Shown: one piece after another, positions 26,139-52,000 of the stretch | Position numbering within the stretch: position 1 is the stretch's first letter | Layout of the letters: the number at the start of each line of letters is the position of its first letter | DNA from: Mobula birostris | Lineage: Eukaryota | Assembly: GCF_030028105.1 (NCBI RefSeq) | Contig: NC_092378.1 | Location: 100,925,731 to 100,989,730, forward strand | Reading direction: 5' to 3' | DNA length: 64,000 nucleotides | Program-made: the position numbers and the translations under genes | The notes under the pieces: generated by a model | Seen by the model: the letters and a program-made list of their open reading frames with translations, nothing else | Database searches by the model: none | Told to the model about the DNA's origin: nothing

Positions 26139-26370
26139 CATCTCTAGGAAGAGGTACAGTCGACGTTTCGGGCTGAGACCCTTCATCAGGACTAACTGAA
26201 AGAAGAGCTAGTAAGAGCTTACTAGCTCTTCTTTCAGTTAGTCCTGAAGAAGGGTCTCGGCCTGAAATATCAACTGTACCTCTTCCTAGAGATGCTGCCT
26301 CGACTGCTGCGTTCACCAGCAACTTTGATGTGTGTTGCTTGAATTTCCAGCATCTGCAGAATTCCTCGTG
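26139..26370. mobile_element. Penelope-like terminal-repeat insertion forming a long inverted repeat, with TSD
   Basis: Arms ~26137-26215 and 26218-26296; flanking duplication caggcacaaggag at 26126-26138 and 26371-26383. Confidence 0.85.
26157..26194 (-). ncRNA. Minimal type I hammerhead ribozyme motif
   Basis: UAGUC-CUGAUGA-A-GGG UCUCAG CCC-GAA-ACGU-C^GACUG: full core, stems I and II, palindromic stem III. Confidence 0.75.
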
Positions 26371-29300
26371 CAGGCACAAGGAGGACATGCAAACTCTACA
26401 AAGTCAGGATCAAACTCAGGCTTATGGGAGCTGTGAGACAACAGTGTGAGCCAATGTGCCATCCAGGAGTCACAGTCCCAAAATAAAGGGTCAGAACTTC
26501 AAACATCAGCCATGATCTTATTGAGTGGTGGAGCAGACGCGAGAGGTTGAATGGCCTGATCCTGCTTCTCGTTATGTTCTTAAGAAATGGTTTTAAGACC
26601 AACATCTTGCAGGTGCGCTTAGGATATAAAAAGAAGAAGCAACAGATGAACTGTTCAGCCTCCAGTGAACAAGTCTGGATGAATGGAATGAATCCGTGGG
26701 CAGTATAACAAAGTTGGGGAGTGATGACAAGACAACATTATGCACATTAAAATATCATTTGCAATTAATTAAAGGGGTTTGATTTGTTTTTTACTTAATG
26801 TGATTTCTATATTTGAAAAGAGAGAAAGAACAATTATAAACCAAACAGCTTAATATTGGCAGCAGGAATATAATGGCATCCTTAGCCAATGGCGTAATGG
26901 AAAACAAATCAGAAAGTGCAAATTGGTATAGTCAACACAGAAACCAAAAGGGGAATTAATGAGTAACCATCCTTATTATACTGTATATTCCAAGAGGAAT
27001 AGATAAAAGTTAATATACTGGATGTGATATATTTGGCCTTCCAAATCACCTTTGAAAAGTTGCTGCAAATGGGACTTGTGTGACATCGGAGAAAGTCACA
27101 AACTGAATGGTCTATTAGTCATACCAAATGGAGGAACCACTGTACTTAAATCTGCATAATCAATTTAGGTGCAGTCTTGGACATTACTAAATTGACAATG
27201 AGACCAATTTGGGCAGAGGTAGGGTAAGGGGGAGGCTATAAAATGGCTCTGTAATAGGCAATAGACCATTATAGATATGTTTATTGATACATGCTTGCAG
27301 GAAGAAAAAGAAGGTTACAATTTCTTGGAAATAAAGTGCCCAATGTGGTAGAGGAACAGTGAGTTATAAAGTGTGTAAATATATAGAGTAAGATTTTATT
27401 ATTCTTTTAAAAAAAATCTATCCACAGCTTTACAAATCTTAAGAAGGGCTTCTTCTGCCTTTGAACAGGAATCAAAGTCATCTGTTACAATTGACACCTT
27501 TGCACGATTTTTGCCCAAAAGTATATATTTTTTATTAAGTAAGATATTCCGTTTTGTAAAACAGTTACTGGAGATACTACAGTCCATTAGCAATTGTAAT
27601 ACCAACTAAAGGTCATGAAAAGGCAATGTTTTTTTCTTTATATTTTCCATGTTCATTTCTAAAGTAAAAAGCAGAAGCTCAAACTCACATTGATATTGGT
27701 TGGACCGTTGCTGAATAGTATTGCAAGTCATGTTGGGTGTAAGAAGGGTAGAGACACTGAAGACAGTGGCTGAACAATAAAGATCAAACTGACTAGGTGC
27801 ACTTGACCTCAGAAAGAAAAGACAGAGGAGCGATGTGATATCAGAAAGGGTTTGAAAAATTTTAGAATAGACTGGTTTATTGTCATATACATCAGAGTGA
27901 GGTTGCAATGAAATTCCTTGCTCATGAAAGGCTCACAGAATAAACGGTACACATGGTAATAATAAATACAACTATAAATACAGAAATAAATACGCTATGA
28001 TGTAGCAATTTTTCTACTTGTCACAAAGGCTAGTACTTGGTTCTAGAGTTACTAACAAATACAATAGGAAATTCAACAAAAATATTTTATCCAGAGAATG
28101 GGAAGAATATGGAACTCTGCCACAAGATTGGTTAATGTGAATTCTGTAGGTGCACTTGAGGGGACCCAGATATGTTTTTTTTTGTAGAGAAAGGCATCTA
28201 AGGATATTCTGACAGAGTGAAATGAAAGGTGGAGAGAGTAGGCATGTTAGGATCAAAAAACAATGCAATTAGCTATTGAGGATGGGCTACATGCTTCAGT
28301 GACATATAATATATTGCACACAGGTCATTCAAGAACCTCCAGCTGCAAAGTCTTTGTTACAGTCTACAGAAGGCTCTGTTGGGTGGGGAACAGTGGGAGG
28401 AGTGGGAGGAAGGCTGAAATAACAGCATCCATGGGAAACAAATTGAGAAAGAGTTGTGTAATATCCTATTAGATATAAGCCCATGGATTGACAGAATATG
28501 TTGGAGGTGCCAAAGAGTCCACCCCTACTTCCTAACTTTCTTCTGGATGTCAACACCAACGTCTGGTATTTATTTCCAGAATACTCAGGATTCAACTTAA
28601 AAGCAGGAACAATCTACAAAGCTATTGGGAAGATAAGATCATAGCTGTCAGTGGGAAAATTATTAACAAAATATCAAAGACAGAAAAATGACTAAAATTA
28701 CCCTCCCTATTTTGAGGCTCTTTTTAAATTTTACTTCTCTTTCTCCCATTCTTTCCTTCCTTGCCAATTTCCATACAAAGGAGGCTGGTGCTCACTTGGC
28801 TGCAGATTCGTGGACACTGTGGTATCCTCTGACTCAGCCTAAGGGACTGTTGCTCATGTTCAGATGCAGAGAGAAACACTGGGACAAACTTAGAGTATCC
28901 TAAGGTCATAAGGCATGGAAATAGACCCTTTGGTGCACTGGGTCTGTGTCAAACATCAAGCACTTCTTCATACTAATCTTATCCTAACCCATTTTTATTC
29001 GCTTCCCACTTGCATCAACTATTTCGGGATTTATGACTTAGGGGTAATTCAGTGGACAACTAACTTGCTATCTTTTCTTTGGGATGTAGGCAGAACCAGA
29101 GGATGCAGGGAAAGCCACGGTGTTGCAAAGAGCATGTGCATACTCAGAGTTCCAGATCAAATCCAGGTGTCTGGAGCTATGAGGTCCTAAAATGAAATAA
29201 AAATAGAAAATGCTGGAAACACTCAGTTGATCAGATAGCATGTGTCCAAAGATAGACTGTCAACATTTCAGGTTGAGCATCTTTCATGAGATGAAGGGCC

Positions 29301-30639
29301 TAACCAATTTTATTAGCTGGTGAATTTTGCCTGAATCTGACTGAGATGCACACTGTCCTAAGCAGGAGAATGGAGTTTATGATCTCCAGTAAGTACTGAT
29401 TCTGAAGGTCTCTAAACACAGGAGATGTTGGAAATCCAGACCAACACACAAAGTGCTGGAGGAGCTCAGCAGGTCAGGCAGCTTCTATGGAGGGGATAAA
29501 CAGTTGGTGTTTCAGGCCGAGATCCTTCATCAGACTGAAAAGGAAGGGGAAAGAAGCCAGAATAAGAAGGCGGGAGGATGGAAGAGAGTACAAACTGACA
29601 GGTGATAGATGGAGACAAGTGAGGGGGAAGGAGGGTGGGTGGTGAAAGTCTTTCACCACCCACCCTCCTTGCCTATGGTCTAGATAATTCAGCCCATAAC
29701 TGGATGGAAAAACTACTTGTATATGTATAATGCAAAAGCAATTGCAATCAATGAAGTACTTTTGCAATACAGTCAATTTTGCAATATAAAAATATTGCAG
29801 ACATTTTAACACACCAGACTCCCACAAACAGTGAAGTAAGACACTCTGATGAGGATATATTATTAGGCAGAACTTGTCCATCTTCTTCAAGGTAGCATTT
29901 TTTTGTCCGCTTGATAGGGTACTATCTCAATATCTTTTCCAAGAGCTTCTTCAATAGTGCAACATTTCTTTGTTCCTAAACTGAGCCCATTTCCCAGAGG
30001 TGGGATGTGCCCAGTGCACCATCTTTTCCACTGGAGCAAGAGCGCAGAGAATTACCAAGTCCCAAACATAACAATTCAGTCCTTCTTGAAGATTTAATAT
30101 GCTGTCACAAAGCAGTTTGTTCTTATCTGATAAAGTGATGAATGTAATTGTGGTTCCACAGTCAGAGATGAACGACCCAGCATCTTTGGAATGCAACTGA
30201 TCAGGTTGTGGTCAAGTCAACTACAGATTTGGACTGAGATTGAAGTGTGTATTTCCCTTAGGGATAATCATGTTGTTTTGGGGTTAAATCACATTGCTGG
30301 TGCTAGCCTGGGGATATTCACAGAATGATCGACTATATCTACATAATTTCCACATCCTCAGGATGTCCCGAAGCACCTCAAATTTAAACATTAACTTTGG
30401 AAGTGTAATCTCTCTGGTCTTCTTTGTGTAGAGCAAGGCTCCTCATTCAGCTGATTAGCCCACTTTAACTAGAGCAACTTTTTAGTGGTTCTAGTTAAAG
30501 GAGCTATTTTGGGCAGTCATTTGATGAACTTCACTGTCCTTCTCCATATGTGCATCTGAACTAATCCCAGGGTCTTTCACTGAATCATGAAAAAAAAGAG
30601 AACCCTTTAAAGGATATTACTCCTTCAGTAAGGAAAAGG

Positions 30640-30990
30640 ATGCATTTAAATAGCATCTTTCATAGTGACAGGACAGTTCAATGTGATTTGCAGCTGATCT
30701 ATAGTCTCGTCAATGTCACTGTATAGAAAATGCAACGGCCTGTTTGTCCACATATAAACTTCCATGATGTTGGCTGAGAATTAAAAAATGTCCAGAAGAC
30801 TGTGAAGAACTCCCCTGTTCTTCATTAAGATAGTACCATGGGATACTTCATGATTAAGATCTTATCTGAAAAATGGCATTTCTAATGGTACAGTACTGTT
30901 CTGGAGAATTGCCAAGGCTTTCTGTGCTTGGATCTCAGGACTGTACTTGAAGCAACACTTCTGTGTCTGAGCCAAGGAACTGAACCAAGA
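30640..30990 (-). mobile_element. Old DeuSINE-like (SacSINE1/AmnSINE1-related) remnant
   Basis: gaactcccctgttcttc...atagtaccatgggat resembles the Deu-domain as recalled; not verified by alignment. Confidence 0.45.
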
Positions 30991-31081
30991 TATTGAGACA
31001 TCATTTTGAATATTGTGCATGTGGGAACCTGCCAGATCTGGTCATTTCTGATGATTTCCTTGTTTTTGCCTTTGAGACTTT

Positions 31082-31888
31082 GTAAGACGATAACCTATCC
31101 CTCAACGTCAGTAAGACAAAGGAATTGGTTGTTGACTTCAGAAGGAGTAGCAGACCGCATGACCCCATTTACATCGGTGGTGTGCAAGTGGAACAGGTCA
31201 AAAGCTTTAAGTTCATCGGGATCAATATCACAAATTACCTGACTTGGTCCAACCAAGCAGAGTCCACTGCCAAGAAGGCCCACCAGCGCCTTTACTTCCT
31301 GAGAAAACTAAAGAAATTTGGCCTGTCCCCTAAAACTCTCACTAATTTTTATAGATGCACCGTAGAAAGCATTCTTCTAGGGTGCATCACAACCTGGTAT
31401 GGAAGTTGTCCTGTCCAAGACCGGAAGAAGCTGCAGAAGATCGTGAACACGGTGCAGCACATCACACAAACCAATCTTCCGTCCTTGGACTCACTTTACA
31501 CCGCACGCTGTCGGAGCAGTGCTGCCAGGATAATCAAGGATATGACCCACCCAGCCAACACACTTTTCATCCCTCTTTCCTCCGGGAGAAGACTCAGGAG
31601 CTTGAAAACTCATATGGCCAGATTTGGGAACAGCTTCTTTCCAATTGCGATAAGACTGCTGAACGGATCCTGACCCGGATCTGGGCCGTACCCTCCAAAG
31701 ATCCGGACCTGCATCTCGGTTTTTTGCACTACCTTACTTTCCATTTTTCTGTTTTCTAGTTATGATTTATAATTTATATTTTTAATATTTACTATCGATT
31801 TGTAATCCAGGGAGCGGGAAGTGCAGAATCAAATATCGCTATGATTGTACGTTCTAGTATCAATTGTTTGCTGACAAAGTATAAAGTA
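31082..31888 (+). mobile_element. Young Rex1-like LINE 3' fragment
   Basis: Open 182-aa frame VVDFRR...KKAHQRLYFLRKLKKFG...FYRCTVESIL...SFFPIAIRLLN; tail aaagtataaagta. Confidence 0.9.
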
Positions 31889-32731
31889 TGCATTTTCTTT
31901 GTCTTCATTACAATTAAAACTAATGTGATTTAATTATAGTTCAAGTATGTCATATTTAAAAAGATAACATTTGAGCCTTGTGTTAAGCTCATTTAACAAC
32001 TCATAAAATAGGAAATACTTTATAAGCACAAGAGATTCATCAGATGCTGGAAATCTGGAGAACAACACATAAAATGCTGGAAAAACTTAGGTCAGGTCAC
32101 GCAGCATCTATGGGGAGGAATAAACAGTTGAGGACCATTCTATGCTGGATCACAAGGGTTGGAAGCCTTAGATAATTTCTTATTTTGTCTCTAAATCTTT
32201 GATCAAGTTCTGAATCTCAATGGCAGTAAAGTATTTTTCCCTGTGTATGAAGTTCCAACAAAAATGTTGAACAGCTCTCACAAATGTCCTCCTGAAATCA
32301 GCCTCTAGAGGAACAATGAATGCTCAGTTTTGCTAAGGATTGTGAATTGAACCTATTTTGATGTAGACAAGGTTTGTGAAAGGTGCCTGGAAAAAATGAA
32401 GACAAGAAAATGACTCAACGTTATTGAGCAGTTCAAATTCTTTGCCTTCCCGTGTACAAAACAAAGACTTACCTACATTTTAAACAACTAATCTGAGAGG
32501 CATACAAAGCCAAAATAGGGGCGATCTTTCCCATTTATTAGATTAGATCATGAGGACACGCAGTCCTCTTTTATTATCATTTAGTAATGCATGCATTAAG
32601 AAATGATACGTTTCTTAATGTATCATACTCCAGTATCTAGAGTGTACTACAGACACATGGGTGATACTGAAAAACAAGCAACTCACACAGTTCTAAATAG
32701 TAACGATTCATTTGTGATCTAAAACCTAACT

Positions 32732-32852
32732 TTTATTTCAGAAACAGTAAAACAGACAGTGGCTATGGTCTGTATCATTATGGTAAGTTAGTATCCATCT
32801 CCGTTTGGACAAAAAATACTTAATTTGCCAAATATTTGAAATAGCATTTATT
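32732..32852 (-). other. Candidate SCNN1G polyadenylation signals (AATAAA at 32847-32852 and 32732-32737)
   Basis: TTTATT on the + strand 166 and 281 nt past the stop codon; which one is used is unknown. Confidence 0.35.
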
Positions 32853-33017
32853 ACAGGTAGGATCACAAAGATGAGAAGACAGTATTTTTTTTAGTATTTT
32901 CTCTGAGTTGCTGGGTTATTCTCACTTGCTGACCATGAACTAGCGTAACCCTTCAGCACTGATCTGCTTCTCCCTGCCAGACTAAAGACATCTTCAGACA
33001 TCCCTGCGACACAGCAG

Positions 33018-33383
33018 TCAGTGAGTGCAGCACCTCAAACCAGGTGTGTCCGGGAGGAAGTCTGCATGCATCTGAAGTGTTTCATAGGTGGGAGGCAGCA
33101 TGTCTGATGCATGAGCACGCGGCAGCTGCAGGGCAGCATTAAAAGTTGGGGGGTCTTCATCGATGTTGTAGACCGGAGATCTGTGAGCCCCTCTACTGGC
33201 TGTCGGTGGCTCCTCCTCTTCTGCCTCTCTCCGCCACCACTTACAAACTGTCTGTATGCCTTTCCGTGCACCAATTAGGAACATGTCGATGAAGAACACC
33301 TCTATTATCTCAATAACACAGACGACAGAGCAGCTCATCCAGAGTCCCAGCTGGCCTCCGAAGTTTGAGAGTAAGGTGACAAC
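33018..33383 (-). CDS. SCNN1G: SCNN1G exon 13 (TM2, selectivity filter, PY motif, stop)
   Basis: [33 protein letters not shown]...[14 protein letters not shown]...LPPTYETL...RCCTH*. Confidence 0.96.
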   Translation of the reverse strand, partial: VVTLLSNFGGQLGLWMSCSVVCVIEIIEVFFIDMFLIGARKGIQTVCKWWRREAEEEEPPTASRGAHRSPVYNIDEDPPTFNAALQLPRAHASDMLPPTYETLQMHADFLPDTPGLRCCTH

Positions 33384-33962
33384 CTAGAATCCGACAAGCA
33401 GAGGCATTAGCACAACCTGAACCCATGCATGTAATGTGCACCTCAAACAACACCATGTGATTCCTGGATCCTGTTCTCCATTCCTGGTGTTTAATAATTA
33501 CCTGCCAACTGTCTGTGCTGGCTGCTTTCTTTCCAATTTCATGTGACTCACCAAATGAGCCTTTTGTTTTATTGATTGTCTTATAGCAAATAACACCAGC
33601 TTTTGAGAAAGGCCACGCTCTATGAGTGAACTGTATCAATAAAACATAATGCGGAATCTAGACTGGACATTTATGAAGTTAAGAGTCATGCTCAACAATC
33701 AGCTATGAGCTTGCTGCTTAAGGTGACGTGCTAACATGAAACACATATCTCAAAGTGGCATGTTCTAGGTAATTTTATGAATGGAGCTTGTTTGACCCAC
33801 CCAAGTGATGATTTTATGTTGCCAAGAAGGTTTGCCATGAGAGATCAAGCAGATTGGGTACCAGCAAGTATTAATTCATTCTTACCAGCGAGATGGACCT
33901 TGAGGAAGGTAATCTAAGGACCTGTCTGTTCTGCTTGGCTAAACATTTGCAACACAGGCTAA

Positions 33963-34003
<41 letters not shown>

Positions 34004-37000
34004 GATAACAACACTAATACTTACATTATTTTCTGCTGTCTCAGTTATGTTCCTCAGATTGAGACTTCTATAGAAGATGGCCAGATTGGCTAACTCATTC
34101 CTGTTAAGTGAAAATGAGAGCACAAAACCAGTGTAATCTGTACACTTTGTTGTAAACCTGTTATGAAATATGCTGCACTGAATAAGCTAAAAACCTCCTG
34201 TTATTCCCACTACACTAAAGTACCACGCAGTAAAAGATTTTCATTCTTATTGTGCTTTTATAACTTTAAAATGTAACAAAGACCCTTATAGCCAATGAAG
34301 TAGATGAGAAAATTGCATGGTAGTTGCAAAGCAGAAAAAACATCCCAATTTAAAACATTACTCAGATTCCAACGAACCATCCACCTTCCTATTCCCTTCT
34401 AACACACAGAATCCCAATGCACCAAGCCCCTTCTTAAAATTTGTGCCTCCTACCTTTTAATCTTTGTGGTGTGCCCTACTCTCTTAGATAACAAGAGTTC
34501 GTCTGGCTGCCCAATTGGTTTGTGTTAGAGTCATGTTCCCATAGCTGAACTGTTCATGCACACTCATTATCCTACTGAGCCTTGCCCTTCAAGTGCCTAT
34601 AGAACAGATATTTCCCCCTTGGAGGAATGATGAAGTTGCCAGTCCTGGAACTACGTGCATTAGTGATTTTCGTTCCTGGATTTCCAGATCATTCTTATCA
34701 AATATACTGATGTGAAGATTTAATTGAATCTCACCTTCATGATCACATTGCATATTAGCAGGCTGACAAATCAGAACTTACTTTCTTAGTGTTTGGTTTC
34801 TATTGAGTTTCCTTTCCCAGTTCAGAAGGTGAAGGATCCACTCCTATTGAGGAAGGACAGTGGTGTGAGCAAATTCCATCACAACAAGTCAGAGGTCTTT
34901 ATGGATCAGCTTAGTCTCTCTACCCATTAATTAGTTGCTTCTCTCTCACAATTTACTTAATTCAATTTGACCCACTCACTCATTGTCTCCTACAAAAAAA
35001 ATTACACGTGCGTGTGTGTGTGTACTTTTACATGCACTCTCTTTTACCAATATGAATATATGGAAATTCAAATCCATATGGATTACGCCTGACTCAAAGT
35101 CACACCATTCAATTATATTTGAATATTTTACTTCTTGGAATCCAAGGTTACATTTTCCACATTAAATACTAAAAGTTTTCTCTTCTCATTTAGGAAATGT
35201 CTCTTTGTAAAGATCTTCACCCTACAGGACAAAAACTTTCCCTGTCTCCTGATCAAAGAGAACTGAGGTATTTGACTTGTTTTTCCTTTCAAAGATGAGA
35301 AAGCTGAGGCTCCAGTACAGACCTCTGAAGAGCACGCCACGGACACTCGGATGTTTCAGATGCACTTCCACAATGTGGATTGGTCCAAGGATTCTATGCA
35401 GAATCCCTGGGATGACGTACTTAAACAAAATAAGGCAGCAGTGCAGAACAAGGCCACGGTGAAGCAGGCAGTAGATATTGTCCTGAAGATGCCGAGGTGC
35501 ACGTAACACTAGCAGGGTAAATTCATCATTCAAGGAGAGTGGTCCTCAAATCAGATATGGGGGCAACACAACCAGTGGTTCATTCCATGCAACCTGGTTC
35601 AAAGTCAGTGTGAGGCTGGTGGGATACATTTATCTAGGAGTTAAAAGTTTCTGGATTTATTAGATTCATTCTTGGGAACCAGTGTAAGTGAGGGAGGGAA
35701 AAAGTGATCAAGTATATGTAATTGAACAAGCACACATATATTGAAGACTGTGAGTGGGTGCAGTACAGAAGCTAATGATTGAAAGAGTGTGTGATGGACA
35801 AAGAGAGAGGGGCAGATTGAGTAAGTCTAAAGGAATGAATGTAAGCTTGTGGGCAAGAATTTGACTTGAATGAGAACGTGACTTTGCGGGCAAGGACAAA
35901 TGTGAATGAGTAACTGACTGAGTATATAAATGTGAGGGATCAAGCGGTCGTGTAAATGTGCAAGTTTTAGTGAGAAAGATTCTATGTAAGTGACTGAAGG
36001 AATGAGTACAAGAGAGCATGAATGGTACTGCATGGGACTGTGAGAGAATGAGTGAAGCAAATGAGAGAATGAATCAAGGAGATGAGAGTGAATGACAGGC
36101 AGTGAAAGCTCAAGTTAGTAAGCATGGAAAATTGAGCAGAAGTAAACTGAGCAAACACCAGTGTGAATGAATGACGATGCGATGGTGCGTGGGTGAGTGT
36201 AGATCTATGTCACTGAGAGTTCGGGCGAATCAATATCTCTGTGTCTGCGTGCACGTGCATGCTTGTGTATCTGAACTTGTGAACGAGAGCACTGTTACAT
36301 CTTTATACCTGACTAGCCCACTCACCAGGTCCCTGCCCCCCACCTTCAAGCAGACATGCTGGAACCTGGGTAGGGTACCAGGAAATAGGAATCTCGTGGG
36401 CGTTGCTCACCTCAGATGGTGGTGAGGGCCACTGGGCGACACTGACAGTCATTGTCCATTCCTTAGAGCTGTGGAGAAAGCACAAAGACCGTGGCTCAAT
36501 GTCCTAATATCCAACGAAAAGCAGAGAAAAATTGGACTAGGCCTTGGTTGCATGGGGATCAACACTGACTGGGTGATGATTTTAGAGGGATTACATTCAC
36601 CCCTGCCACCCCTCTCCCCCCTCCAGCTCCCTTCCCCTGATTATGACTCTCAACGTTCCACAGGCAGAGGACTCAGCCTTAACTGGATATGAGATCTAAA
36701 TGATCCACAGTTTGAGCATTGGCTCTAGAGTAACTGAAAATGACTGGACACTAGAATTAACTACAAACTAGATCTAGTGGCATGACGTTGACTGGAAAGT
36801 GGCTCCAAAAGCATGAACAATGTCAGTACATGAGATATTGTGGCGCTGGCAATTGCTGGACACAGGGTCCTAATGGACTGGAATTGTCTGGACCCACACT
36901 GGTAAATAAGCCCCATTGGTATTGGCACTGATTGGGCACAAGGCCCACAGAGGCCACGTTGGACAGTGGCTTTACAGGAAGTAGAATTGAGGGTAATTTA

Positions 37001-40000
37001 AATCCAGATAGTGGCAATGAGTGGACACTTGTCTGTAGAGAGACTAGCGGTGGCTGGTTATTCAGGGGGATGAGGGGGCTGTGTCAGTGAAGCAACAAGA
37101 GGGGACAGCAAGAAGGTATTTCTTGGTGCAGTGAGATGAGCCACAAAAACCTCAGAATTTGTGCCTTTAAATATAGTACAACTAAAAATATTAGCATCTG
37201 GTTCAATGCATTTAAGATTATCCCGCATTTCTTGTGAGCGGACTTCACAACTGGTTTGCTTTTCATATCTAGTCCTCCCTAAAAATGCTGTGTCCACTGA
37301 TCTGGAAAATACTACATACTATGTTGCATTACTTACAGTAATTGTTGAATTGCATTTGCTAAATTTATGCACCTTTGACCGAACTTCCCCGAAGAGGACC
37401 ACAACCTTGTCATAGGGTTTGGAAGCTTGTGTGCTTCAATGACCCAGAGAGTGACATTGGCTGGAGTCAGGGCCTTATGCCTGGCTCTTTGTAGGGTCAC
37501 CCATTCCAAACAGGACAAAGGGTAGAGGCCAGACTAAGAGAGGTCCACCAGTCCTTCAGGTTTGGGGGCTCAGCTCAGGGCCGACAACCATGACTAATCA
37601 AAAAAAGTTGATATGGAAACAGCAATGAAGAATCCTATATCTGGGTGCGATCTAAGGAGGACCTCCATTGCTGCCCTAAACGCCAATGACAACAGGCAGT
37701 AAGTAAGTGACCAAACTTGGGTAAAATGTCTTCTCTTGCTTTTGGGTTACAAACCCCTGTTCTAGAATGACCAGCACTTACTAGATTTAGAGCGGCACAG
37801 CTGTGTAGTAGTTAGCACAACACTTCCTGTGCCAGCTGGAAGGTCAGGGTTCAATTCCTGCAGCTACCTGTAAGGAGTTTCTACATTCTCCCCGAGACCC
37901 CATGGATTTCCTCCAGGTGCTCTGGTTTCCTCCCACAGTCCAAAGACATACGGTTAGGGTTAATGAGTTGTGGGCATGCTATGTTGGTGCCAAAAGTGTA
38001 TTAATCCTAGCTGATTTGATTTGATGCAGACGACATATTTCACTGTATGTTTCGATGTACATGTGACAAATGAAGCTAATCTTTAAACACAGCTCCAGTG
38101 GACTTGGAGTTCTTTGTGGCAGCTGGTACAAAAGGACATCATGTCCTCAGGGATGGGCACTAGTTTTAGGGCAACTTGACCACAAAGTTTTAACTGGGAT
38201 TCATGGTTGCATATTTGACTGCATCGCCAGCTCCATGGGAACGTAAGTGGACCGGACATCAACAACAATGCTGACAAAAGAGTCTTACTGGACATGACTC
38301 CAGAGGGACAAGCAATGACTCAACTCTGGCTCAAGAAAGGCTGGAAATGCTTGAACACTATTAACAAGAATCCACATGGACTGCACTGGTGTTTTACAGG
38401 AAGCACATAGAATATATTCTGATAATCCAAAGTGGTGCACCTCTCTGCAACTAACACTGAGAGAAGGACAACTAACTTGTGGGATTTCATTGAGCTATCT
38501 TGTTGGAATGGAAATTATCTTCAGGTCTTAGGAACTTACTGACAGGCAGGTCGGCAAATCTTCTGGCAAACCAATTGTTCTTGAATAAATTGATTGCGCA
38601 GTCTGTAATAGCAGGAAACTATGGGAAAAGAGAAGTTTCTTAAACTCTGTGGGCAACATCAAATAACTAAACAAACAGAATTATATCTACTTCCAGATTT
38701 CCATTATTCTTCCTATCAAAAACACCCTGAATTTATTCATGACCCCTTGACTCTTGTACTGTGTCCCCAATTTCTCTGTATCTGGATTAAGAAACTTCTT
38801 CAGGAAACCTGATTGAACTCATCCTTACATTGAACAACTTCACTCACTTGCACTTTATTGTCTACCTGCACTGCACTGTCTCTGTAGCTATAACACTTCA
38901 TTCTGCTCTGTTATTTTTTCCCCCTGCACTACCTCTGCACTTTTATAATGAATGATATTTAAGTCAAGTTTTTCACTGTTCCGCAGTACACGTGACCATA
39001 ATGAACTAATTTAATTTCTCCAAATCAAAGATGTCTGACGAACTTCCAAATCAGACAACTTTGATTTGGAAGTTCAGCATCAGGCATCTGATCAACATGA
39101 TTCGTGTAACATAATCAACAGGGTATAATTATGCTATATAGAGCTATTCAAGTGCAAAAAGATTTGTTTGTTTTATCGACTACACAAAAGCATTTGATAA
39201 AGTGAAGCACAATAAGTTATTTGAAATATTAGAGCAAACTCTAGATCTAGATTCTAAAGACCTCTGTCTAATCAGAAATCTGTACTGAGAACAAACTGCC
39301 GCTGTAAGAATAGATGGAGAAGTGAGTCAGTTTACGAAAATCAAGAGAGGTGTTAGACAAGGGTGTGTTTTCTCCCCTGATTTATTTAATGTGTACAGTG
39401 AAACAATATTACAAAAAATAAGAGACATCTTGGGAATCAAATTTGGCAGTGAAAACGTCAATAATTTCAGATATGTAGATGACACTGTGTTAATTGCAAG
39501 TACAGAGGAAGAACTACAAAACTTAATTGATATAATTATTGAAGAAAGTGCAAAAATGGGTCTATCAATTGCAAAAAGACAGAATGTATGGTGATATCCA
39601 AAAAGGAGGAGAATCCTATCTGCAGGCTGAGAATAAACGGAGAAGACATAAAGCAAGTACAGAACTTTTGCTACTTAGGAAGCTGGGTGACATCAGATGG
39701 CAGGTGAAACATGGACATCAAAAGAGGAACAGGGATGGCAAAAGACACCTTCACAAGAATGAAGAGTATACTGACCAATACTAAACTAGGCATGACACCC
39801 GCCTCAGAGCACTGAAATGCTACGTTTATCCAGTTATGTTATATGGATCAGAATGTTGGACAATATCTAGTAATATGAGGAAATGAATCGTAGCAGCAGA
39901 GATGTTTTTTTGAGCAGGATGCAAAGAATATCATGGATGAACCGAATGTCTAACAAGGATGTCATGAACAGAGCAAACACAAAAAGAGAAATAATGTATG

Positions 40001-43000
40001 AGATCATGAAAATGCAACGTAACTTCATTGGACATGTGATTAGGAAAGAGGAGTTAGAATGCACTGTAATTATGGGGAAAGATTGAAGGGAAGAAAGCAA
40101 GAGGAAGACAAAGACAAAGGATGATGGAGACAGCAGCCAGAGAACCGGAAATGAATACCAATGAATTGATCCACTTGACCCAAAACAGGAGTGTGTGGAC
40201 CATGGCAGTCAAAGCTCAAACTGGGCACGGCACCTGATGATGATGATGATGATGATAATAATTATGCTTAATTGCTGGGGATCACAAGTCACTGGAAAAA
40301 CATCACCAATGCTGAATAAACTCTTATTGGACTTCCAGCTGGGTGCAGGTATCAATTTTAACCAACGTTTCAATGACAAACTCTGCCATCTTCATTAGGG
40401 ATGATGCCTGGGCATGTTTAGTCTGGTGGTATTTATACTCCCATCGTCCATCACTTCTGATTGGTTAGTCCTCTTCCAATCCCAATCAGGTTTCCGCTGT
40501 CCCACCTTGTTTACAATCAAAATTCAGTTCTTACTTAGAATGAGAGTTTTGTCTTTGTTAAAATTCTTTCCCTCTAGTTTTATTTCAATGGCTTCCTTCA
40601 CCAGCCCGTCCCAAAAGCCACTGGTGTGGCAGAGTAGTTCTGCATCATTGAAACACTTAATCTTTTTTCACCAGCATTGCTATCCCAGCAAAATGCTCCA
40701 AATTCATCAGAATATTCATGACTAAAATAAGCCAGCCGATCTGGGGGAGAGCTCGCTGACTTTTGTTTGCTTATCCTTCCAATGAATTCAGATGATTTTG
40801 CTGAACTGGCACTGGTGATGCTTTTCTGTTGCCTTGTGATGCCTTGGTGCATGGTCCAGGTCACAGAAACATTTGTAGGACAGAGATCACTTCTGCCTGG
40901 TACATCATAGGGTTTATGTCCAGTCTGAAGTCATAATCTTGAAGTACTCTTTTCTCAATCAACACAACATATACTGCTGCATTGAAGACAGTGGGAAATT
41001 TCATCATCAACGATTGCCTTTGCCAAGAGTTGACTCTCAAGATAAGGAAAGAGGTCCAATTCTCTGCGTTTTGTCATCAACTTCCATTGTCAGACTGCAC
41101 TGTGGTACAACACAGGCAGGTGGTAGAGGTCCTCTATCTTGTTGATTCTGAATATATTTAATGTATACCAATTTTAAATTTAGCATAGTCTAGATTTCAG
41201 AGTCTTCCTGATCATTTTGCTGGTGTCAAATTATAATAGATACAAATTTAATGCTGTTCTGATGAAATCAAAACTTTAAGCATTTTTTTTTACTCAAGAA
41301 ACCCCATCTGATCTGCTAATTATTTTCACCATTTTCTGTTTTTAATCTCAAAGGCAGCTCTGTTTCCTTGCCAGACCTTCTTGGGTTTGGTCTGTCATTT
41401 CCTGAAATTTACATTGGATTTTCATGATCAAATGGTTCAAAATTTGGAATTCACTCAACAATTGACTATGATAATTATGGAATAGTTTTGGTTTTTGTAC
41501 ACTGTTCTATTTCGGTCCATCTTTCAATGCTCATTGATACACTCCAAAACTGATTTGTTCTGGATCGTGATGGCAATTTCTTGAAGTCTTGATTGACTGC
41601 ATCTAGTCTGTAGATCACATTTTCACTTGCAATAGAGTGTAAGAGGAAGATGCAACAGTTCATCCACAATGAGCTCTACTTGAAACTTCTCTAGACCATT
41701 AAACACGCATATACCGAGAGATTGTGTGATTTACAGAGTAAAGGCAGGCAATGAGAACTTTACTGGAATCCAAAATAACTCAGACTGGGTGGCGGAGTGG
41801 AAATACATCTTTACCAAAGGAGGTGTAAGGTTCTCCTTCCCTACACTAGTCTGCAGGTCACCCTAGGGCAAGGTGTAGCACCTCCTTAGCTCTCCCCACC
41901 CCAATCAGGGTCACGTGAAGCCAAGGGGGCAGGTGGTGTATGGTCATTTGAGCAGCTGGTATATATCACAAGTCCTGGTTATGCAACCACTGATTCCAGG
42001 CAGACAGTCTCTGAAGAGTACTGGTAATGGCTGGCGTCACCCGTCTTGTAAAGGCACTGCCCAGAAGGTGGCAATGGCAAACTATTTTTGTAGAAAAATC
42101 TGCCAAGAACAATCATGATCAGGAGACCATGATTGCCTACATCAAGTAGCACAGCACATAACAATGATGATAATGGTGATACTGAGAGAATGACTGGGCA
42201 CCTTAGTAGATATTGCTGATGTGGGACCTACTAATAACGACTTACAATCTGTTGCTGGGGTAAAGGCTCTACCTAGTAAAAACTAATGGAACTTATTGAT
42301 TTCAGTTGCTCTTCTAAGTGCTTTCTTCCCAATTGGAGCATAGCTGTGCTCACTCTGAGGTGAAATGGATGGGTTTTGCTTGTACTCTTGCTTTACTACT
42401 GCACAGGCACCACAGGTTAAAGAACCATATGCTGGCTCATGGTGCCATAATAAATAAGGAGAGTTTCACTTGTTAGGTATGCCTTGCAACTAATGCACCA
42501 TACTTAGCTATATTTTCAGTACTGGTGATATAGCCTCTACATTCCCTTTATTAATCTTCAGCTTGACAGTGTTTTCCATTATCAGAATACGGCTGAACTT
42601 ATCAAATTACTGTATACTGACCGGTACTCAAACAGGTTATGACACAGCAGTTCACATGTTCATTCACTGGCTGTTAATCAAGCTCTTCATTTGAAGGTCC
42701 GTCCACGTGCTGTTGTCACTGCTGTATTTCATGCAATGAAAGCAATCACTGTGAGGACAAAACTCTTCTACAGTCTTGTGCTACTTCCATTGACCCAGCA
42801 ATTTAACAAACAATCTTGAATATTGGAGGCTGCATGATCAAAAGCTTTGAAAGAATTGGATCATTTAACAGTCCACTCACAAAACTATCAGATAAAGCAT
42901 GATCCAAGAAGACAGCAACAAAGTAATGTATTAATGAATAGTCTCATTCTGCTTCAGTTCCTTGTCCCAGACTGCTAGCCTTCTGTTATTTCCAACAGGT

Positions 43001-46000
43001 TTGGTTGGAAGTAGTTAGCAGTTTCTGTACAACTTTTTTTAAACAACTTATTGCATGCATTTGGTCCAATCACTGTCAGAGGTGAACATTTTTTTTTAAA
43101 TCCTTGCCCAGCACATAATTTTGGGCTCAGTTAACTTATTGAGAATGTTTTTTTAAATACTTGCTTCCAAATGGGAGTCGTACATTCCGTGAGCTTGTTA
43201 CATTGCGTAACAGGCAAGTACATCGTTGACTCCACTGGTCAACTTTACAGTCACGTGGAAAGAGAATGCCATATTTCATGCTTGAAAGATACATTACAGC
43301 AGGTGAAAGAATAAATAACAGAAATGTGATGATGCAAAGTGAGAGAATGAGTTAATGGGAGGAAAATGAGAATATAAATAAATCAGGGGAAATAGAAAAT
43401 GGAATACTGGAATCATTATCTGAAATCATTGTTGCGTCCAGACAACTGTAGTGAGCTGCTTTCCTCCAGCTTACATTGAGTTTGTACAGGAAGGTGGTTT
43501 GGAGAGGGAGGAAAATTCAAGTCATATGTACTTGTCAATCTGAGGTCACGACTGAAGACTGAATGGAGGTGTAAATTCAGTGACCACTTTCTAGACTGAA
43601 GTCTCCAAGCATAAATGATACTGCCTAGTAAAACACACAAAATGCTGGAGGAACTCAACAGGACAGGCAGCATCTATGGAAATGAATAAATAGTTGACGT
43701 TTCAGGCCGAGACCCTTCTTCAGGACAGCTCTGAAGAAAGGTCTCAGCCCAAAACATCAGCTGCTTATTCATTTCCACAGATGCTGCCTGATCTGCAGGG
43801 TTCCTATAGCATTTTGTGTGTTACTTTGGATTTCCAGCATCTACAGGTTTTCTTCTGTTAATGATACTACCCCTTGCTTTTCTGTCAGGAGGTGAAACTC
43901 CTTGTGATTTGTGCAATCCTGCCATGCATAAAATGCCTACTGTGTTTATCTGTGCAGCAACGAATCACTGTGGTAATCTTTGGATGTAATTAGATGCTGC
44001 AGACATATAGATATTGATCAGCAGGAAGTGTGAACTCACTCCAGCCTGGGAACTTTGCGTAATCGCAGTACTCTGCTTCGGCAGGTAGTGGCTTCTCATA
44101 ATGGGCACACCCACAGCATCGGACCATTTCCATCTGAAAGCACGAGTGCAGACACATCTGTGTGCACAAAAGGAGTCAACTGGATTAGTCTGCTCTTTCT
44201 ATTCCCAGTCGAAGTTTGTACTGATGATTTCAAGTGGGCTGAAGTCTTGCCTGTAAAGTGTATCTTTTGTTGTAGAGATTTGCCACTGGCACATTCAGCC
44301 CGTCCATCGTACAGTCACTGTACGGACTACCCAGTCTTTGCAATACAGTCTGAAATATCAACAAAAATGATTCATTGGAAAGCAATACATTGCAAGAGAC
44401 AAACAGCAGCAAATGTAAGTTATTGTAAGCCTTGCAATTGGTGAAGGTTGCTCAGTTTATCTGATTTTTATTTCAAAATGAATTTTATGCATAATAAAAA
44501 TATAGTGGGGTTCTGGTTAATTAGGCCATCAGGGCAGCTGTTTATATGGGACAATGTGCTGCTTCGTTGGGGCAGGAGACGACTGCTGAACATTTTCTAA
44601 CTAGCATCAGTCGCAGTGCCTGTTAGACACTACTACACCGCACATAGAGCAAACAGTTTTTAAGTAGCATCAGTTGCATGTGTTTGTGTTCAAAAAGCAG
44701 TGATTTTTGTCACTGACAGTTGTGAGAAATAAGTAGTGAACAACTCAGAACTCACTGCTGTTTCAATCATTCAGACATGGAAATACCAGAAACGGCTGGC
44801 TGTGAAAATGAAACGATTTCACTATTTCAACAAGGTAGGACTTAAGAAGAATTTGAGGGTATCATCTTGAATGTTACCTTTGGTCCCCACTGGGCACTCT
44901 GCTCTCACCTGTGGCTCTAAGCCCCATTTCAGTACACTGCTCCATCAGGTTGGCTATACCAGGTGAGGGTAGCTGGCAGTCTCAGACCCTGGTGAGATTG
45001 GGACATGCCTGTCCGAGCATGTGAAGTCAGCTCTGGAGGACTGGCTGGAAGAGATCTACACAGTGAGATCCAATGGCCAGAAAGGCCCTTCTGAAACGCA
45101 CAGGGAGAGCGAAGGGCATGACGAGGCACAAGATGATGTCATGGTCATCCACTGCAACCAGGGAAAACTCCAGTTGTGACATCTACTCATCCCACTGGAC
45201 CCAGACTTCTGAGATGGAGACAGTGGAACTGCCCAGGCTTTCTACACAGGTTTCCTGTCATTGTCAAATATGATGGCCAGCCACCAATAGTTTTGGTAGT
45301 GTTCTAGTTTGTTTTACTGTATATTTCATTCAAACACCTAAATTGTTACTCAGTTAAACAGGAGATTGTCTTTATATAACTTTTCAGCTACTCCCATGAA
45401 ACTTCTGGGGAAGCCACTTAATTGGGCCAAAATGTACTGGTCTCAATTGACTGGAATCTACTGTATATATAAAAGAAAAAATATAGTACAAAATATCTTA
45501 CTTTCTTACTATGTGCCATTTCATTGGAGGTTCAGCAGGAATTGAAAACTGCATTGCCTCTCTGTACACAGACCTGCCATAAATCACCAGGTAACAGATC
45601 TGAATCACAGCTACAATATTCTCATCTCAAACTCACCTAACCAGATTCCTCCATTCTCAATTCCATCCACCAATCAACTCTTATCTCCTTAACACTCATC
45701 TTCACATCATCTCCCCAACTATCTACTCAGTTTCAGAATGTGGGAACAGGCATATTTCCCCCCTTGAGTCTATTCTATCAATCAACCCAACCAACAGGGA
45801 TCTGTGATCCAACTCCATGTATCATTTCTCCATAAACCTTTAATAAGCAAAACTCCATCAATCTCAGATTTCAAATACCAAAATGATATGATTCAATTGC
45901 CAATTGCGGAAGAAAGTTCCATGTTTCCGCCATCCCCTGCATATTGAAATGCTTCCCAACTTCATTGTTCAACTCTAGTTTTCAGACTGAAGCCCCTTAG

Positions 46001-49000
46001 TCTTAGATTTACCAACTTCTAGCTCTTATCATTTCTGCTCAATGAACTGAAAACTTAAATCAAAACACTCCAAAACATGCTAAATTATGTAGAATCCAGC
46101 CAAGTATAACAGAATATAATCCAAGTTAACATTCATATGCACTCCCATCACAAAAATGAGATGCTTCAGCCAAATAAAATCCAACTACAATGTTGAATAG
46201 CTGGAGCCTAACTTCAAATATCTGATGCTCCAGGCATAAATTCCATTAATCCTCAGGTCTCCTTGGATTTTCACCATTTAAAAAGTATTCTGTTCAATTA
46301 TTTTTGTATCCAAAACAGAGGACCTCACATTTGCATGCTAAAATTGAGTTTGTTGAGTACTGTGAGAATTGCTTGGACCTTGACCATCAGCTGATACCGT
46401 CAGCTTAGTTGTGAAGGAGTGTTTCCCATTGGGAAGATTACCAATTCAAGGCCCATGGCCGTTTGGGTTTCTGTCTGAATCTCAATCCCCACATCTTCAA
46501 TGAAGGGGTGTTCATGGTGATCATGAATGACAATTTTGGCTCCCATTGAAGTGATGAGGTACGGATTGTACTCATCCTCATCCACATGCAGAGTCACCTT
46601 CAGGCCTGTGAAAGAGAAGAAGAGGAGAGCCAACTTTCAGGACATCGTGATCAGTTTATAGCCAATAAACACAGCCACGTTGCAAGTAGGAAATATGGTG
46701 GCCAATTGCACACAGCAAGCTCTGACAAACAGTATAACATTGACTTTCACTTGGAAATTCTTTATGCCTTATCAGATCAGAACTGATGAAGGTATGTCAG
46801 GCTAAAATGCTGCCAGTGAAACGTGAGCTAACCAGTCTATAATTTCCAATATTTTCTATCCTTAGTTTGTATCTCACTTCAGAGTTGAACAACTTCGGAT
46901 AGTAATTCTGTATTTCCATTAAAACCTGTTCTTTGACTTTTCTCATCATCACTCTCACTTTGATCAACCTTCCATCACAGATATCCCTTCCGTTGTTTCC
47001 ACCTCTACTTGCATTCTATTGCTTCTGGAAGTGCTAAAAATTTAGCCTAGCACACAATTCCCAATTCTAGTGAAAGATTCCCAACCAAGGATTTAATTCA
47101 CTTTCTCCTTCCACAGATGATGTCAGACGTGCTGAAAATCTCCACCATTATTTGTTTTGACTTTAGATCTCAAGGATCTGCATTTTTTTTTTACAACCCC
47201 AACAAAAGAACTTGGAGTGAAGTGTAGAAATCATGTAATAAGCTCAAGAAGGAGATGGAAAGTTTTCTAAAAGGCAAGTGGATCAAGGAATGTGGGACAA
47301 AAGTGGGAATAGGCTACCGAATGCTCAGGCAGATAGCATTGAACGGTGGAACAAATGCTAAGGGTGGAATAGCATTTTCCTGCTTCCGTTTTCGTTGTAA
47401 AAAAAAACCCATGTCGTGACTTGAAGATTGTGAGACACCACATCCTGGGGGGGGGGGGCATACTAAAGAGTGAAGTCACACAAGGACATAGGATCGTGGG
47501 CATTCTCCACCAAGAGAGACACGTGAATATTGCACTGGGACACCCAGAGTACAGTGGAAACTCTTCCCCAAGTCCTTCAATAAAGGTTAACTTCCATCTG
47601 GAAGATAATTGCGAAGAGTAGACTTTACCCAGAGGCTTTGAATCCGTAAAGCTGTACTGGCAGAATAAAATGTTTTATAATTATAGTGTCATACAGCACA
47701 GAAACAGGTCCTCTTGTCCATGGGGCCAATCAGTGCTAATCCCATTTACAGAGTAAATTGTAGACACTGCTTCCTCTGTCTTTCGACTTTACCCTCCATT
47801 ATCAGTGAAAACTCCGCCTCGTTTTACCGTTCTCACTGCCCCCGCTGTTGGTTCGCAGAGCTCTGCTATCTTCTCCACTGTTGAATGTGAAGCAGTTTCC
47901 ACGCAGCGGGTGGTGCATTAGGCTAAAGTTCCTGTAGCGGGGAGAGAAGGGGGACAGACACACCTCAGTCACTGCGGAAAAAAAGAGTGAAACATCAAAG
48001 ATGCAGATCTTCGGGAGGACTGGAGTGTCGGAGGAGGCAAACGCGGGAAAGCTGGAAACAAAGTGCATTTGGATATTGACCTCGGAAACCCCCTCCCCAC
48101 AAGGACTACAGACAACCCAAGAGTATAAAGGATTGAGATGATATCTTATTAAAATGTCATAATTTGTTAGATTTAATAAAGTGAACCTAGTTCCCCTGAA
48201 ACACTACTCTGTCTCAGCTCTCTGACAATGAAGGAGTCAATCAAAGAGCAACTTCAACAGGTTGAAAATTATTACTCTTCCTCCGGGCAACACCCCGTCA
48301 GCAGGTACCTGACAGTACAGCAAGCCCTCAGCACCACCCGACTCCTAATGAATCAATCCGTGCCGATATGTTCACACGCAAACACGAGGGAATCGGCAGA
48401 TGCTGGAATTTCAAGCAACACACATAAAAGTTGCTGGTGAATGCAGCAGGCCAGGCAACATCTCTAGGAAGAGGTACAGTCGACGTTTCAGGCCGAGACC
48501 CTTCGTCAGGACTAACTGAAAGAAGAGCTAGTAAGAGATTTGAAAGTGGGAGGGGAGGGGGAGATCCAAAATGATAGGAGAAAACAGGAGGGGGAGGGAT
48601 GGAGCCAAGAGCTGGACAGGTGATTGGCAAAAGGGATATGAGAGGATCATGGGACGGGAGGCCTAGTTTCAGACCATGCTGTACCCTACCTCAAGTAGTA
48701 CCCCTCGAAATGGTATAGTGCCCCTTACTGCCACTCCACGGCATTTGCCTCCCCAGCCCCATCAGAACTATCCTCTCTAAATGCGGCCCCCCACCACGCC
48801 AGTACTGCACTGAGCGTGGGGGAGCCGTGGCTGCTTCAGAAATGTCGCTCCCACTATGATTGAGCTCTTCAGAACTGCCCCCCCAAAACGTAACTCGACC
48901 CCCCCCCCCCGTTCTCCTCCAAACTAAATTCCTAGACTGGACCCGGGGACCTGCCTCCAAATTGTTCTTTCCACACTGTTTGAGCCTCCCCAATTGCGGA

Positions 49001-52000
49001 AACCCCAAACTACCCGTCCCCCACCTTCACTGCGGACCCACAAAATTTCTGCACAGGAACATTCTGGAAAGGTGTGAACCCAAAAACTGACGTCTCCTAG
49101 CGACAACTGCTTTTCTCGGTTGGCTACAGCCGAATATCTTACATACAGAGCAGTCTGCATTAACCTTGAATCGCAGGCTCTTCCCCCAAACGAACAGGAT
49201 AATATAAGATCATCAGCAGAGTAGCCCATCTGCAGTTTGGTTTGTTCGGGCACCCGTGCCATAATGTTGAGGTAGTGGAGTCGATACCATTCCTGGATGG
49301 CGGCTGTGCCCGAGTTGAATGTATAGATGTCACAGGTAGAGTCATCGTGTTTCTTCTCGCACTGCCCCGGGAGAGAAAGAAGAAATAAGCGAACTTGCAA
49401 TACAAGGTCAAGCTAGTTTCCAGTGCCCAAGATGTCCTCAGCAGATCCTGACCCAAAGGATCTGGCTCTTCCCTATGTATCAGACTCACCAACTTGAAGC
49501 CAATCATGTTGCTCGGTTTCAGGGTGTAGCTGCCCCCGAACGATCGGGTTCGGAGTGTCCCGTTCATCCTGTGTAGCCTCTTGGTGATGAGGTCGGACAG
49601 GATGGTGTAATCCTCGCCCACCTTGACCCGCAGCAGTGGAATACTGTTGGAAAATCCGCCCCCTTGGCTTTCGGCGGTGTTTCGCCGAGCTCGCCACTGA
49701 CTGCTGTTGGAAGTATTGGTGAAGTGGTAAAGCTCGCTGATGGCAATCCGCGTCTCCTGGTCCAGTTTATCAAAGAGATGTCTCGTCGCAGTGTATCTGT
49801 AGAGAGACGGGAGCAAACCCAGGGCAATGATAACCGCCATGGTCTGGGTGTGTATGAGGGAATTCAAGTAGGACCTTTCTAGGAGGTTCATGTTCACATT
49901 ATTGACAAGGAAGACATCTTCAGAAATACAGTACATCTTTTATGATGACAATTGTTTGAAAATTTCTGTGCTTCCTACTGTATTTTTAGCCAACATACAC
50001 CTTCATCAGGTGCTAGTCAAAGCATTTGACCTCTGCCACCGACCCTCCAATCATGAAACGGTGGAGAACCTTGGGGAACAATGGCCCGCAGCGACGGGTT
50101 CCCGTATTTACCAAACATCGCAGTTTAAGAACTGGACAGGGAGCATTATCTGCTCAACAGTCTCCTTCATTTTCAGCGAGATCATGATTACTACTCCATC
50201 TCGTCTCCAATTCCCACCCTCAGCCTTATCCCTGAATTCCTAGCAGACCAAAAAATTGCACGAAATCTACCAAGTAACTAACACACGCACACGCGCACAC
50301 ATACACACGCACACAGTGCTGGAGGAACTCAGTAGGCCAGGCAGCATCTATGGAAAGGAGTAAACAGTCGATGTTTCTGGCTGAGACCTTTCGTCAGAAC
50401 TGGAAAAAAGATTAGAAGTTAGAGCAAGAAGATGGGGGGGGGGGGAGGGGAGGAAGAAGTACAAGGTGATAGGTGATAGGTGAGACCAGGAGAGAGGGAG
50501 GGGTGAAGTTAAGAGCTGGGAAGTCCATAGGTGGAAGAGATAAAGGCTGGAGAAGGGGGGATCTGACAGGAGAGGGTAGAATACCATTGAAGAAATGAAG
50601 GAGAGAGGTGCTACGTAGTTAAGGAGATAAGGTGAAGGGAGGGGGAAAAAATCCAGAAGTTCAAGAAATTGATGTTCATGCCATTAGGTTGGAGGCTACC
50701 CAGATGGAATAAAAGTGTTGCTACTTCAACCAGAGTGTGGCCTCATCATGGCAGTAGAAAAAACCATGGAGTGTCATGTCAGAATGGGAAGTAGAATTGA
50801 AATAGGTAGTCACCAGGAGATCTCGCTTTTTTTTCTGGCAGATGGAGTGTAGGTGCTTGGTGAAGCAGTTTCACGATCTACACCGTGTCTCATCGATATG
50901 CAGTAGGCCACATCAGGAGCACTGGATACTGTAGATGAATCCAACAGACTCTCAGTAAATGGTGTAGGGGCAGGTATGGCACTTGTCCTGCTTGCAGTGG
51001 TAAGTACCAGCAAGGAGATCAGTGAGTGGGGTGGGATAAATGGACAAGGGAGCAATCCCTACAGAAAGTGGGAAGTGGGGCCGAGGGAAAGATGTGCTTG
51101 GTGGTGGAATCCTGCTGGAGATGGTGGAAGTTATGTTGAATTATTTGCTGGACACGGAGGCTAGTGGGGTGGTATGTGAGGACAAGAGGAGCCGGTTGCT
51201 GGTGGGGTGCCGGGAGGATGGGGTGAGGGCCGTGTTGATAGTGGAGGAAGGAAAGCCCTTTTCTTTGAAGAAGAATGAAAAGCCTCATCCTGAGAGCAGA
51301 TGCAGTGGAGACAGAGGAACTGTACGAAAGGGATGGCATTTTTACAAGTGACAGGGTGGGAAGAGGTATAGTCCATGTAGTTATGAGAATCAGTGGGTTT
51401 ATAAAATATATCAGTAGATAAGCTGTCTCCAGAGATAGGGACAGACAGATCAAGGAAGGGGAGGGAGGTGTCAGAAATGGACCAAGTGAATGTGAGGTCA
51501 AGGTGGAAGTCAGAGGCAAACTTGATAAAGTCGATGAGCTCAGCATGGTGCAGGAAGCATCAGCAATGCAGTCATCGATGTAGTGTAGGCTCGGAACATA
51601 GACTGTTCTGTGTAGCTAACAAAAAGCAGGCACAGCTGGGAATTATGAGAGTGCCCATGGCTACACCTTTCGTTTGAAGCAAGTGGGAGGAGAATGTACC
51701 AGTCTTAGTCTAGACCACTCTATAGGGAAGGACTGAGCCCTGAAAGCATTCACATCCCACCAGTTTCTCTGGCAGTCCAAGAAAAATAAGTCAAGAAAAA
51801 TTTCACTTACTTTGTGAAAGCTTTCATTCTGCTGAATGGACTTTTCCCGTGTAAAATTGGAATACCGTAAATGGCAGGTTAATAGTTAGCACTCACTTGA
51901 TGGGCTGAAGGACCTGTTCCCATTCTGTCTTACTCTATAGTTCTAAAGTAAAGGTGCATGCCAGAAATTCTAATGTTCTCACATAGCAATGAGACACCAA

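Follow-up and report, generated by a model that had tools for sequence, protein, structure and literature searches.

Penelope-like elements (PLEs) carry minimal hammerhead ribozymes (min-HHRs) whose activity is reported to be modest, with no detectable cleavage of single copies and low activity of dimers (Cervera and De la Pena 2014, PMC4209133). Likewise, the hammerhead of PAc, the Poseidon element of Anolis carolinensis, is described as cleaving only together with the element's protein, as dispensable for insertion in vitro and as leaving no RNA-seq reads that end at its site (Frangieh et al. 2024, PMC11167929). The CPEB3 ribozyme, by contrast, is reported to be conserved, with a half-life that matches transcription to the next exon (PMC10919898). 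Here, we analyze a stretch of 64,000 nt from Mobula birostris (NC_092378.1, positions 100,925,731 to 100,989,730, forward strand; the window in the following), in which several hammerhead motifs lie in and near SCNN1G, the gene for gamma-ENaC. An earlier note on this DNA had proposed that two intronic copies pair with each other and thereby cut the SCNN1G transcript. We consider it highly probable that the motifs are terminal-repeat fragments of a Neptune-type PLE, inserted here as at tens of thousands of other places, and that they are inert passengers which are spliced out.

Hammerhead motifs in the window and their parent element

The hammerhead motifs listed in the earlier note were all found where it had placed them. 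In its complete form, the motif consists of the 5' strand of stem I, CUGANGA, an extra A, a stem II of 4 bp, GAAA, the loop-less palindrome ACGU, C17 and the 3' strand of stem I. The best-formed example (26157..26194, minus strand) is located 3' of the last SCNN1G coding exon and combines the full core with a G10.1-C11.1 pair and a stem I of 5 bp, one U-G among them. The copy in intron 4 (48477..48514, minus strand) likewise possesses the full core and ACGU, and its predicted cut site, 48482^48481, had been placed correctly. Its stem II, however, is closed by G10.1-U11.1 or, in a shifted register, by A-U, a feature absent from the earlier note. The type I core (CUGANGA/GAAA/UH) with helices I and II is thus present in these two copies, whereas stem I is broken in the copy in intron 8 (43691..43728, minus strand); the palindromic, loop-less helix III (15.2-16.2, ACGU) is found in all three. 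The intron 8 copy, in which stem II is closed by G-U, had been described as an intact core with a stem I mismatch. This is accurate, the mismatch being a C-A beside the cut, but a further change in the 5' strand of stem I had not been listed.

The class assignment also holds: these are minimal type I hammerheads on PLEs, and their palindromic, loop-less stem III requires a partner. An extra A does follow A9, and the base between A9 and 10.1 is an A in 67 of 70 sampled copies; the earlier note had likened it to a viroid variant, but it marks no special tie to viroids, given that PMC4209133 describes such a base as an ordinary trait of PLE min-HHRs. In copies with U11.1, this A could pair with U11.1 instead. 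A scan against Rfam at E<=5 returned no match to a hammerhead family, likely because the hammerhead models expect a helix III.

The surroundings of the motifs reveal their origin. The intron 4 motif, which is the same as that of most PLE copies with a long open reading frame (ORF), sits in a 5'-truncated pseudo-long terminal repeat (pLTR) fragment of a young subfamily (48377..48661, minus strand), which has 91.6% identity to a natural long copy and ends 105 nt beyond the cut site. The intron 8 motif is part of an inverted-repeat PLE insertion (43632..43822) with arms of 92 nt (43632-43723 and 43731-43822, 83%), of which the plus-strand arm 43731-43822 had been overlooked. The 26157 copy belongs to another such insertion (26126..26370; arms 26137-26215 and 26218-26296, 79 nt, 92%), which also contains the plus-strand motif 26239-26276. 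This motif and the copies at 50365 and 29501 are degenerate, and ACGU is gone in all three. The copy at 50365-50402 terminates an older, broken PLE in intron 2 (50305..51691, minus strand): ORF remnants at 51691-50656 match amino acids 472-870 of a natural long ORF and are followed ~260 nt downstream by the motif and then by a tail. The copy at 29501-29538 lies in an older pLTR fragment (29423..29631, minus strand) 3' of the last SCNN1G coding exon. Intron 2 also harbors a half motif (53491-53517) with a tail (53491..53572, plus strand), antisense to SCNN1G. Two minus-strand pieces had not been listed, a degenerate copy that lacks part of the core (~55098..55179) and a PLE tail (~32075..32131). 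Lastly, a broken PLE remnant of the reverse transcriptase (RT) and endonuclease (EN) region (62579..64000, plus strand) has a degenerate motif on the same strand at 465-491 of the adjoining stretch (L072). A Pfam search with nine broken PLE frames of the window and one SCNN1G frame gave no match.

To characterize the parent element, we searched at the protein level with the RT remnant of the window, which gave 26,121 candidates; 150 of these were scored, and we examined 17 loci chosen because the frame that matches the RT stays open over a long distance. A same-strand hammerhead motif follows the ORF in 16 of the 17 loci, ~300 nt beyond the stop where the frame reaches one. In one partial-tandem PLE (L071, C3:231674000-231683999), three hammerheads are spaced 3,027 nt apart, with ~99% identity between the units; this tandem is a very recent insertion or duplication. 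Together with the ORF remnant upstream of 50365, these loci place the motif in the pLTR of an element with RT and GIY-YIG domains. The ORF of one locus (L061) scores 25.9 bits for RVT_1 (below the cut-off of 29.6) and 23.2 bits for GIY-YIG (above that of 22.6), the latter domain being C-terminal to the RT, and contains a CX4CxxC zinc-finger-like linker. A CX2-5CxxC linker is reported as a mark of Neptune and Nematis elements (PMC8557442). Judged by these sequence features, the carrier appears to be a Neptune-type EN+ PLE, Neptune being preferred over Nematis because Neptune PLEs have been reported in fishes (PMC4209133).

The insertions are 5'-truncated and often have an inverted arm; 5' truncation, inverted adjacent copies and tails of 30-40 nt are described as normal in PLEs (PMC8557442). 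Long copies end ~62-72 or 102-106 nt past the cut site (~70 or ~103 nt in short), and 26 of 31 sampled alignments end in these two zones, the second of which is limited by the end of the query. No pile-up of 5' ends was seen at the cut site, where 0 of the 31 alignments start (the nearest at -2 and +6). We propose that tandem copies are the source of the parent element's transcripts and that, as the literature makes likely, the motif of this element cleaves weakly, either when tandem repeats supply a dimer or when the element's protein assists. Reverse transcription would start beyond the hammerhead, on an RNA that was presumably uncut at its 3' hammerhead, because the copies extend past the cut site to the two end zones. 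The short truncated and inverted ends would then scatter across the genome and decay.

Abundance and decay of the motif family

A strict 34-letter pattern of the motif has 34,648 exact copies in the genome (17,080 on the plus and 17,568 on the minus strand), or one per 116 kb. The motif is not due to chance, given a random expectation of 3e-10 and 0 genomic matches of the reversed-pattern control. For a closer look at decay, we used the introns of ASIC genes (1,199,000 bases), which yielded 149 tail-anchored matches; 70 gap-free ones were kept, and 79 that were truncated, gapped or too diverged were dropped. The SCNN1G locus is not enriched for PLE hammerheads: the window holds 2 strict copies vs 0.55 expected (P=0.11) and 10 family copies vs 8.0 expected from the ASIC-intron density (P=0.28), and SCNN1G itself has 5 vs 2.7 expected (P=0.14).

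The general base of the hammerhead is reported to be G12 (PMC11300833), so that G12>A marks a dead copy. Genome-wide, exact counts are 6,161 for the parent motif with C11.1, 1,471 for G12>A and 1,289 for G>A in the loop. Dead copies are, if anything, slightly commoner than loop variants (ratio 1.14, P=0.0006), which could stem from sequence context or from weak selection against active copies. The catalytic G12 is lost at the pace of a loop base, and the copies decay neutrally after insertion; in these family-wide counts, the core bears no sign of the purifying selection that distinguishes a domesticated ribozyme. The 70 ASIC-intron copies give the same picture, with CpG G>A changes in 15/35 at G12, 23/54 in the loop, 22/51 in stem III and 15/43 at position 1.1. 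At non-CpG positions, the core (45/630) does not differ from the non-core (96/1050; P=0.17). Intact copies in these introns number five in sense and five in antisense orientation. A search for covariation found 130 matches with double changes at 10.2/11.2, but the 100 listed are mostly A/T double transitions; we rejected them as a sign of covariation, given that neutral decay gives the same pattern.

The commonest form of the motif has U11.1, with 24,435 exact copies vs 6,161 for C11.1. The G-U closing pair is also that of the intron 4 and intron 8 copies, whereas the 26157 copy has the G10.1-C11.1 pair, which is described as highly conserved in min-HHRs (PMC4209133). We infer that U11.1 was already present in the amplifying master and is more than mere decay, because its count is 17x that of G12>A at the same CpG and because it occurs in 15 of the 16 motifs of the long-frame loci. 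A weaker ribozyme or a register moved to A-U may be the consequence; the literature searched for alterations of G10.1-C11.1, as far as its text was accessible, contained no measurement for G-U. That the dominant subfamily amplified with G10.1-U11.1 bears on the question of whether PLEs need their hammerhead to transpose. As a side effect, the change to U11.1 removes the CpG that makes the catalytic G12 hypermutable.

Splicing, folding and possible cleavage of the SCNN1G transcript

SCNN1G (32580..54310, minus strand; start codon at 54287) is delineated by spliced contigs and by its top PDB match, gamma-ENaC (E 1e-44). Because a likely splice acceptor directly precedes the start codon, the first exon may be non-coding. 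SCNN1B follows downstream on the same strand (E 1e-52), and three frames of the window match the Pfam family ASC. Transcript evidence comes from four sequencing runs, available as assembled contigs that are presumed to be RNA (one is probably DNA) and from which no ends, strand or level can be read. Their joints coincide with splice sites and lie, for SCNN1G, at 53968/49796, 49490/49361, 49164/47930, 47827/46604, 44251/44157, 44040/38618, 38540/36468, 36410/34842 and 34781/34099. As had been proposed, the copies at 48477 and 43691 are intronic: they lie in GT-AG introns (47932-49164 and 38619-44039), both of which are bridged by spliced contigs in runs from two studies. We take the designations intron 4 and intron 8 to follow human exon numbering. 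The intron 4 insertion is likely older than the split from a close relative, because a contig from that relative extends ~55 nt into it.

If the PLE copies are inert passengers, as we believe, the single intronic ones would rarely or never reach the active fold, and those of SCNN1G would likely be removed with their introns. Structure prediction points in the same direction, so that the hammerhead copies likely do not cut or regulate SCNN1G RNA. There are, nevertheless, several points that weigh against this view. Among the 70 ASIC-intron copies, G8>A occurs in only 2/23, below the other CpG sites, although older subfamilies may lack a CpG there. The strand test is small, with a 95% confidence interval of 0.19-0.81 for the sense share, and it relied on neuronal ASIC genes, with exon matches as the basis for their inferred extent; moreover, all 149 family matches taken together lean antisense (62 sense vs 87, P=0.049). 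Neutrality of the family as a whole is compatible with selection on one single copy. Assembled contigs are blind to RNA ends and to a minor cut fraction, and nearest-neighbour energies leave out the tertiary stabilisation of the core, so that they serve to order the alternatives but are no proof of silence. Lastly, no inverted arm accompanies the intron 4 copy, whose motif is identical to that of the long-ORF copies.

These two features of the intron 4 copy are also what would favor a low rate of cutting in trans, by way of other PLE RNA or, at times when the young family is expressed, PLE protein, as an incidental leak and not as selected control. Many contigs in the sequencing runs match the PLE repeat, and a PLE protein was reported to help its hammerhead in vitro (PMC11167929). 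In its own context, however, the intron 4 copy is not predicted to fold into either stem I or stem II (P<=0.01), two separate monomers are favored over its homodimer (-22.0 vs -11.5 kcal/mol), and the antisense copy in intron 2 (53491..53572) offers the intron 4 element a predicted duplex of -122.8 kcal/mol. Given also that introns show no depletion of intact sense copies, we regard such cutting as unlikely. A still more far-reaching version, in which retroelement expression lowers gamma-ENaC mRNA through the trans-cut intron 4 hammerhead while many thousands of identical intronic sites are cut transcriptome-wide, strikes us as very unlikely. If it were true, the replacement of C11.1 by U in the dominant subfamily may have attenuated this transcriptome-wide cutting of pre-mRNA.

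The intron 4 and intron 8 copies had instead been thought to pair in cis as a double hammerhead, to cut the nascent SCNN1G transcript and thereby to tune gamma-ENaC. Both are indeed on the sense strand, 4.8 kb apart, and retain CUGANGA, GAAA and ACGU, and an intronic ribozyme is reported to be able to reduce a host mRNA, as in the case of Cpeb3 (PMC10919898). Yet the intron 8 motif is predicted to be buried in a 92-nt hairpin, wholly paired to its own antisense arm, which is transcribed first (predicted arm duplex of -134.6 kcal/mol; probability of 0.00 that ACGU is unpaired). One site of the heterodimer is mismatched (C-A) at the first pair of its stem I, the stem I of the other site contains a U-U mismatch, and G10.1-C11.1 is absent from both stems II. 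At -5.5 kcal/mol, the double hammerhead compares with -23.9 for the best cofold, which makes it 18 kcal/mol less stable, and with -15.2 for two monomers. With spliced contigs across both introns and a gene that is not enriched for copies, we find pairing in cis extremely unlikely. The wider proposal that a PLE ribozyme controls gamma-ENaC expression is unsupported as well, both introns being bridged by spliced contigs and the inserted copies of the family giving no sign of selection.

Finally, the idea that the 26157 copy is a co-transcriptional cleavage site which helps to end SCNN1G read-through toward SCNN1B has next to no chance of being right, for although it is the best-formed motif and lies in sense orientation in the interval that separates SCNN1G from SCNN1B, it is predicted to be buried in a 79-bp hairpin with an inverted arm that is transcribed earlier, it has no intact partner (the motif of the arm lacks ACGU), and AATAAA signals come before it, at 32575, 27400 and 27285.

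Several further observations concern the transcripts and the surroundings of the gene. The PLE ends at 43632-43822, 26137-26296 and 53491-53572 combine sense and antisense copies, and in the pre-mRNA they would pair into long stretches of double-stranded RNA that adenosine-to-inosine editing would likely act on. The contig pieces listed for one run (X1) span 27297-32913; those at 27297-32579 (minus strand) reach ~5 kb past the likely main 3' end of SCNN1G near 32580 and stop beside the AATAAA at 27285. A form of SCNN1G with a long 3' untranslated region that spans the 29501 copy is possible. For the 26157 copy, there is no unique piece among those listed, an absence of cover that proves nothing. 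In another run (X2), a contig of 8,022 nt contains SCNN1G exons up to 54310 at its position 875 and then continues for ~7 kb beyond the examined stretch, perhaps because the first exon is merged with a neighbouring transcript. Exons at 20394-20519 and 21838-22156 (minus strand) are spliced together in two runs (skip 20519-21838, CT..AC) and are likely 5' non-coding exons of SCNN1B. A minisatellite at 8355-12487 (45-bp period, 91.7 copies, 92% matches) lies between SCNN1B-like exon matches. Other repeats include a long inverted pair of similar fragments resembling long interspersed nuclear elements (LINEs) at 56931-61212 and a LINE-like RT frame of 604 codons at 4768-6579 (plus strand), which, from its motifs, is presumably CR1-like.

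Comparison with known systems

In most respects, the motifs resemble the min-HHRs of PMC4209133 as reported there: they share the type I core, a base between 9 and 10.1, the loop-less palindromic 15.2-16.2 and a short helix I, they reside in the pLTR of an element with RT and GIY-YIG domains, and they occur as thousands of mostly single truncated copies, some of them close together on opposite strands. They differ in abundance, with 34,648 exact copies vs ~4,000 in coelacanth and ~9,000 in Xenopus by the descriptor of those authors, in a helix II of 4 bp and in their commonest form, which has U11.1 and not the conserved C11.1. The part of the supplementary text of that study that was searched has no entry for shark, skate, Callorhinchus, Leucoraja or Squalus, while its file 1, outside the search, may list one. 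In sum, the locus is an unremarkable member of a class that has been known since 2014, and it lends no support to ribozyme control of ENaC.

Like PAc, as far as it is described, the element has a hammerhead in its PLE terminal repeat, and its genomic copies stop preferentially at either of two points beyond the ribozyme (PAc with a tail of 30-40 nt), which implies an uncut template. Unlike it, the element has a Neptune/Nematis zinc-finger linker, whereas PAc, a member of the Penelope/Poseidon clade, has an ORF that begins within the ribozyme. Non-LTR (long terminal repeat) retrozymes (10.64898/2026.07.22.740005) also contain type I hammerheads related to those of PLE pLTRs, and one chondrichthyan genome is reported among them, but they are described as tandem arrays of short units. 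In the window, no tandem array overlaps the hammerhead motifs; the copies are single or inverted PLE ends, one of them still with ORF remnants. We thus rejected a retrozyme identity, which calls for short ORF-less units arranged head to tail.

Lastly, the copies share with domesticated intronic ribozymes, such as the hepatitis delta virus-like ribozyme of mammalian CPEB3 and the intronic hammerheads of amniotes, that a self-cleaving motif lies on the sense strand of a host intron. Unlike CPEB3, however, they belong to a high-copy, decaying repeat and are unable to close stem III alone. Their modest value lies in their number, as tens of thousands of near-identical copies provide a natural series for a clean test of neutrality.

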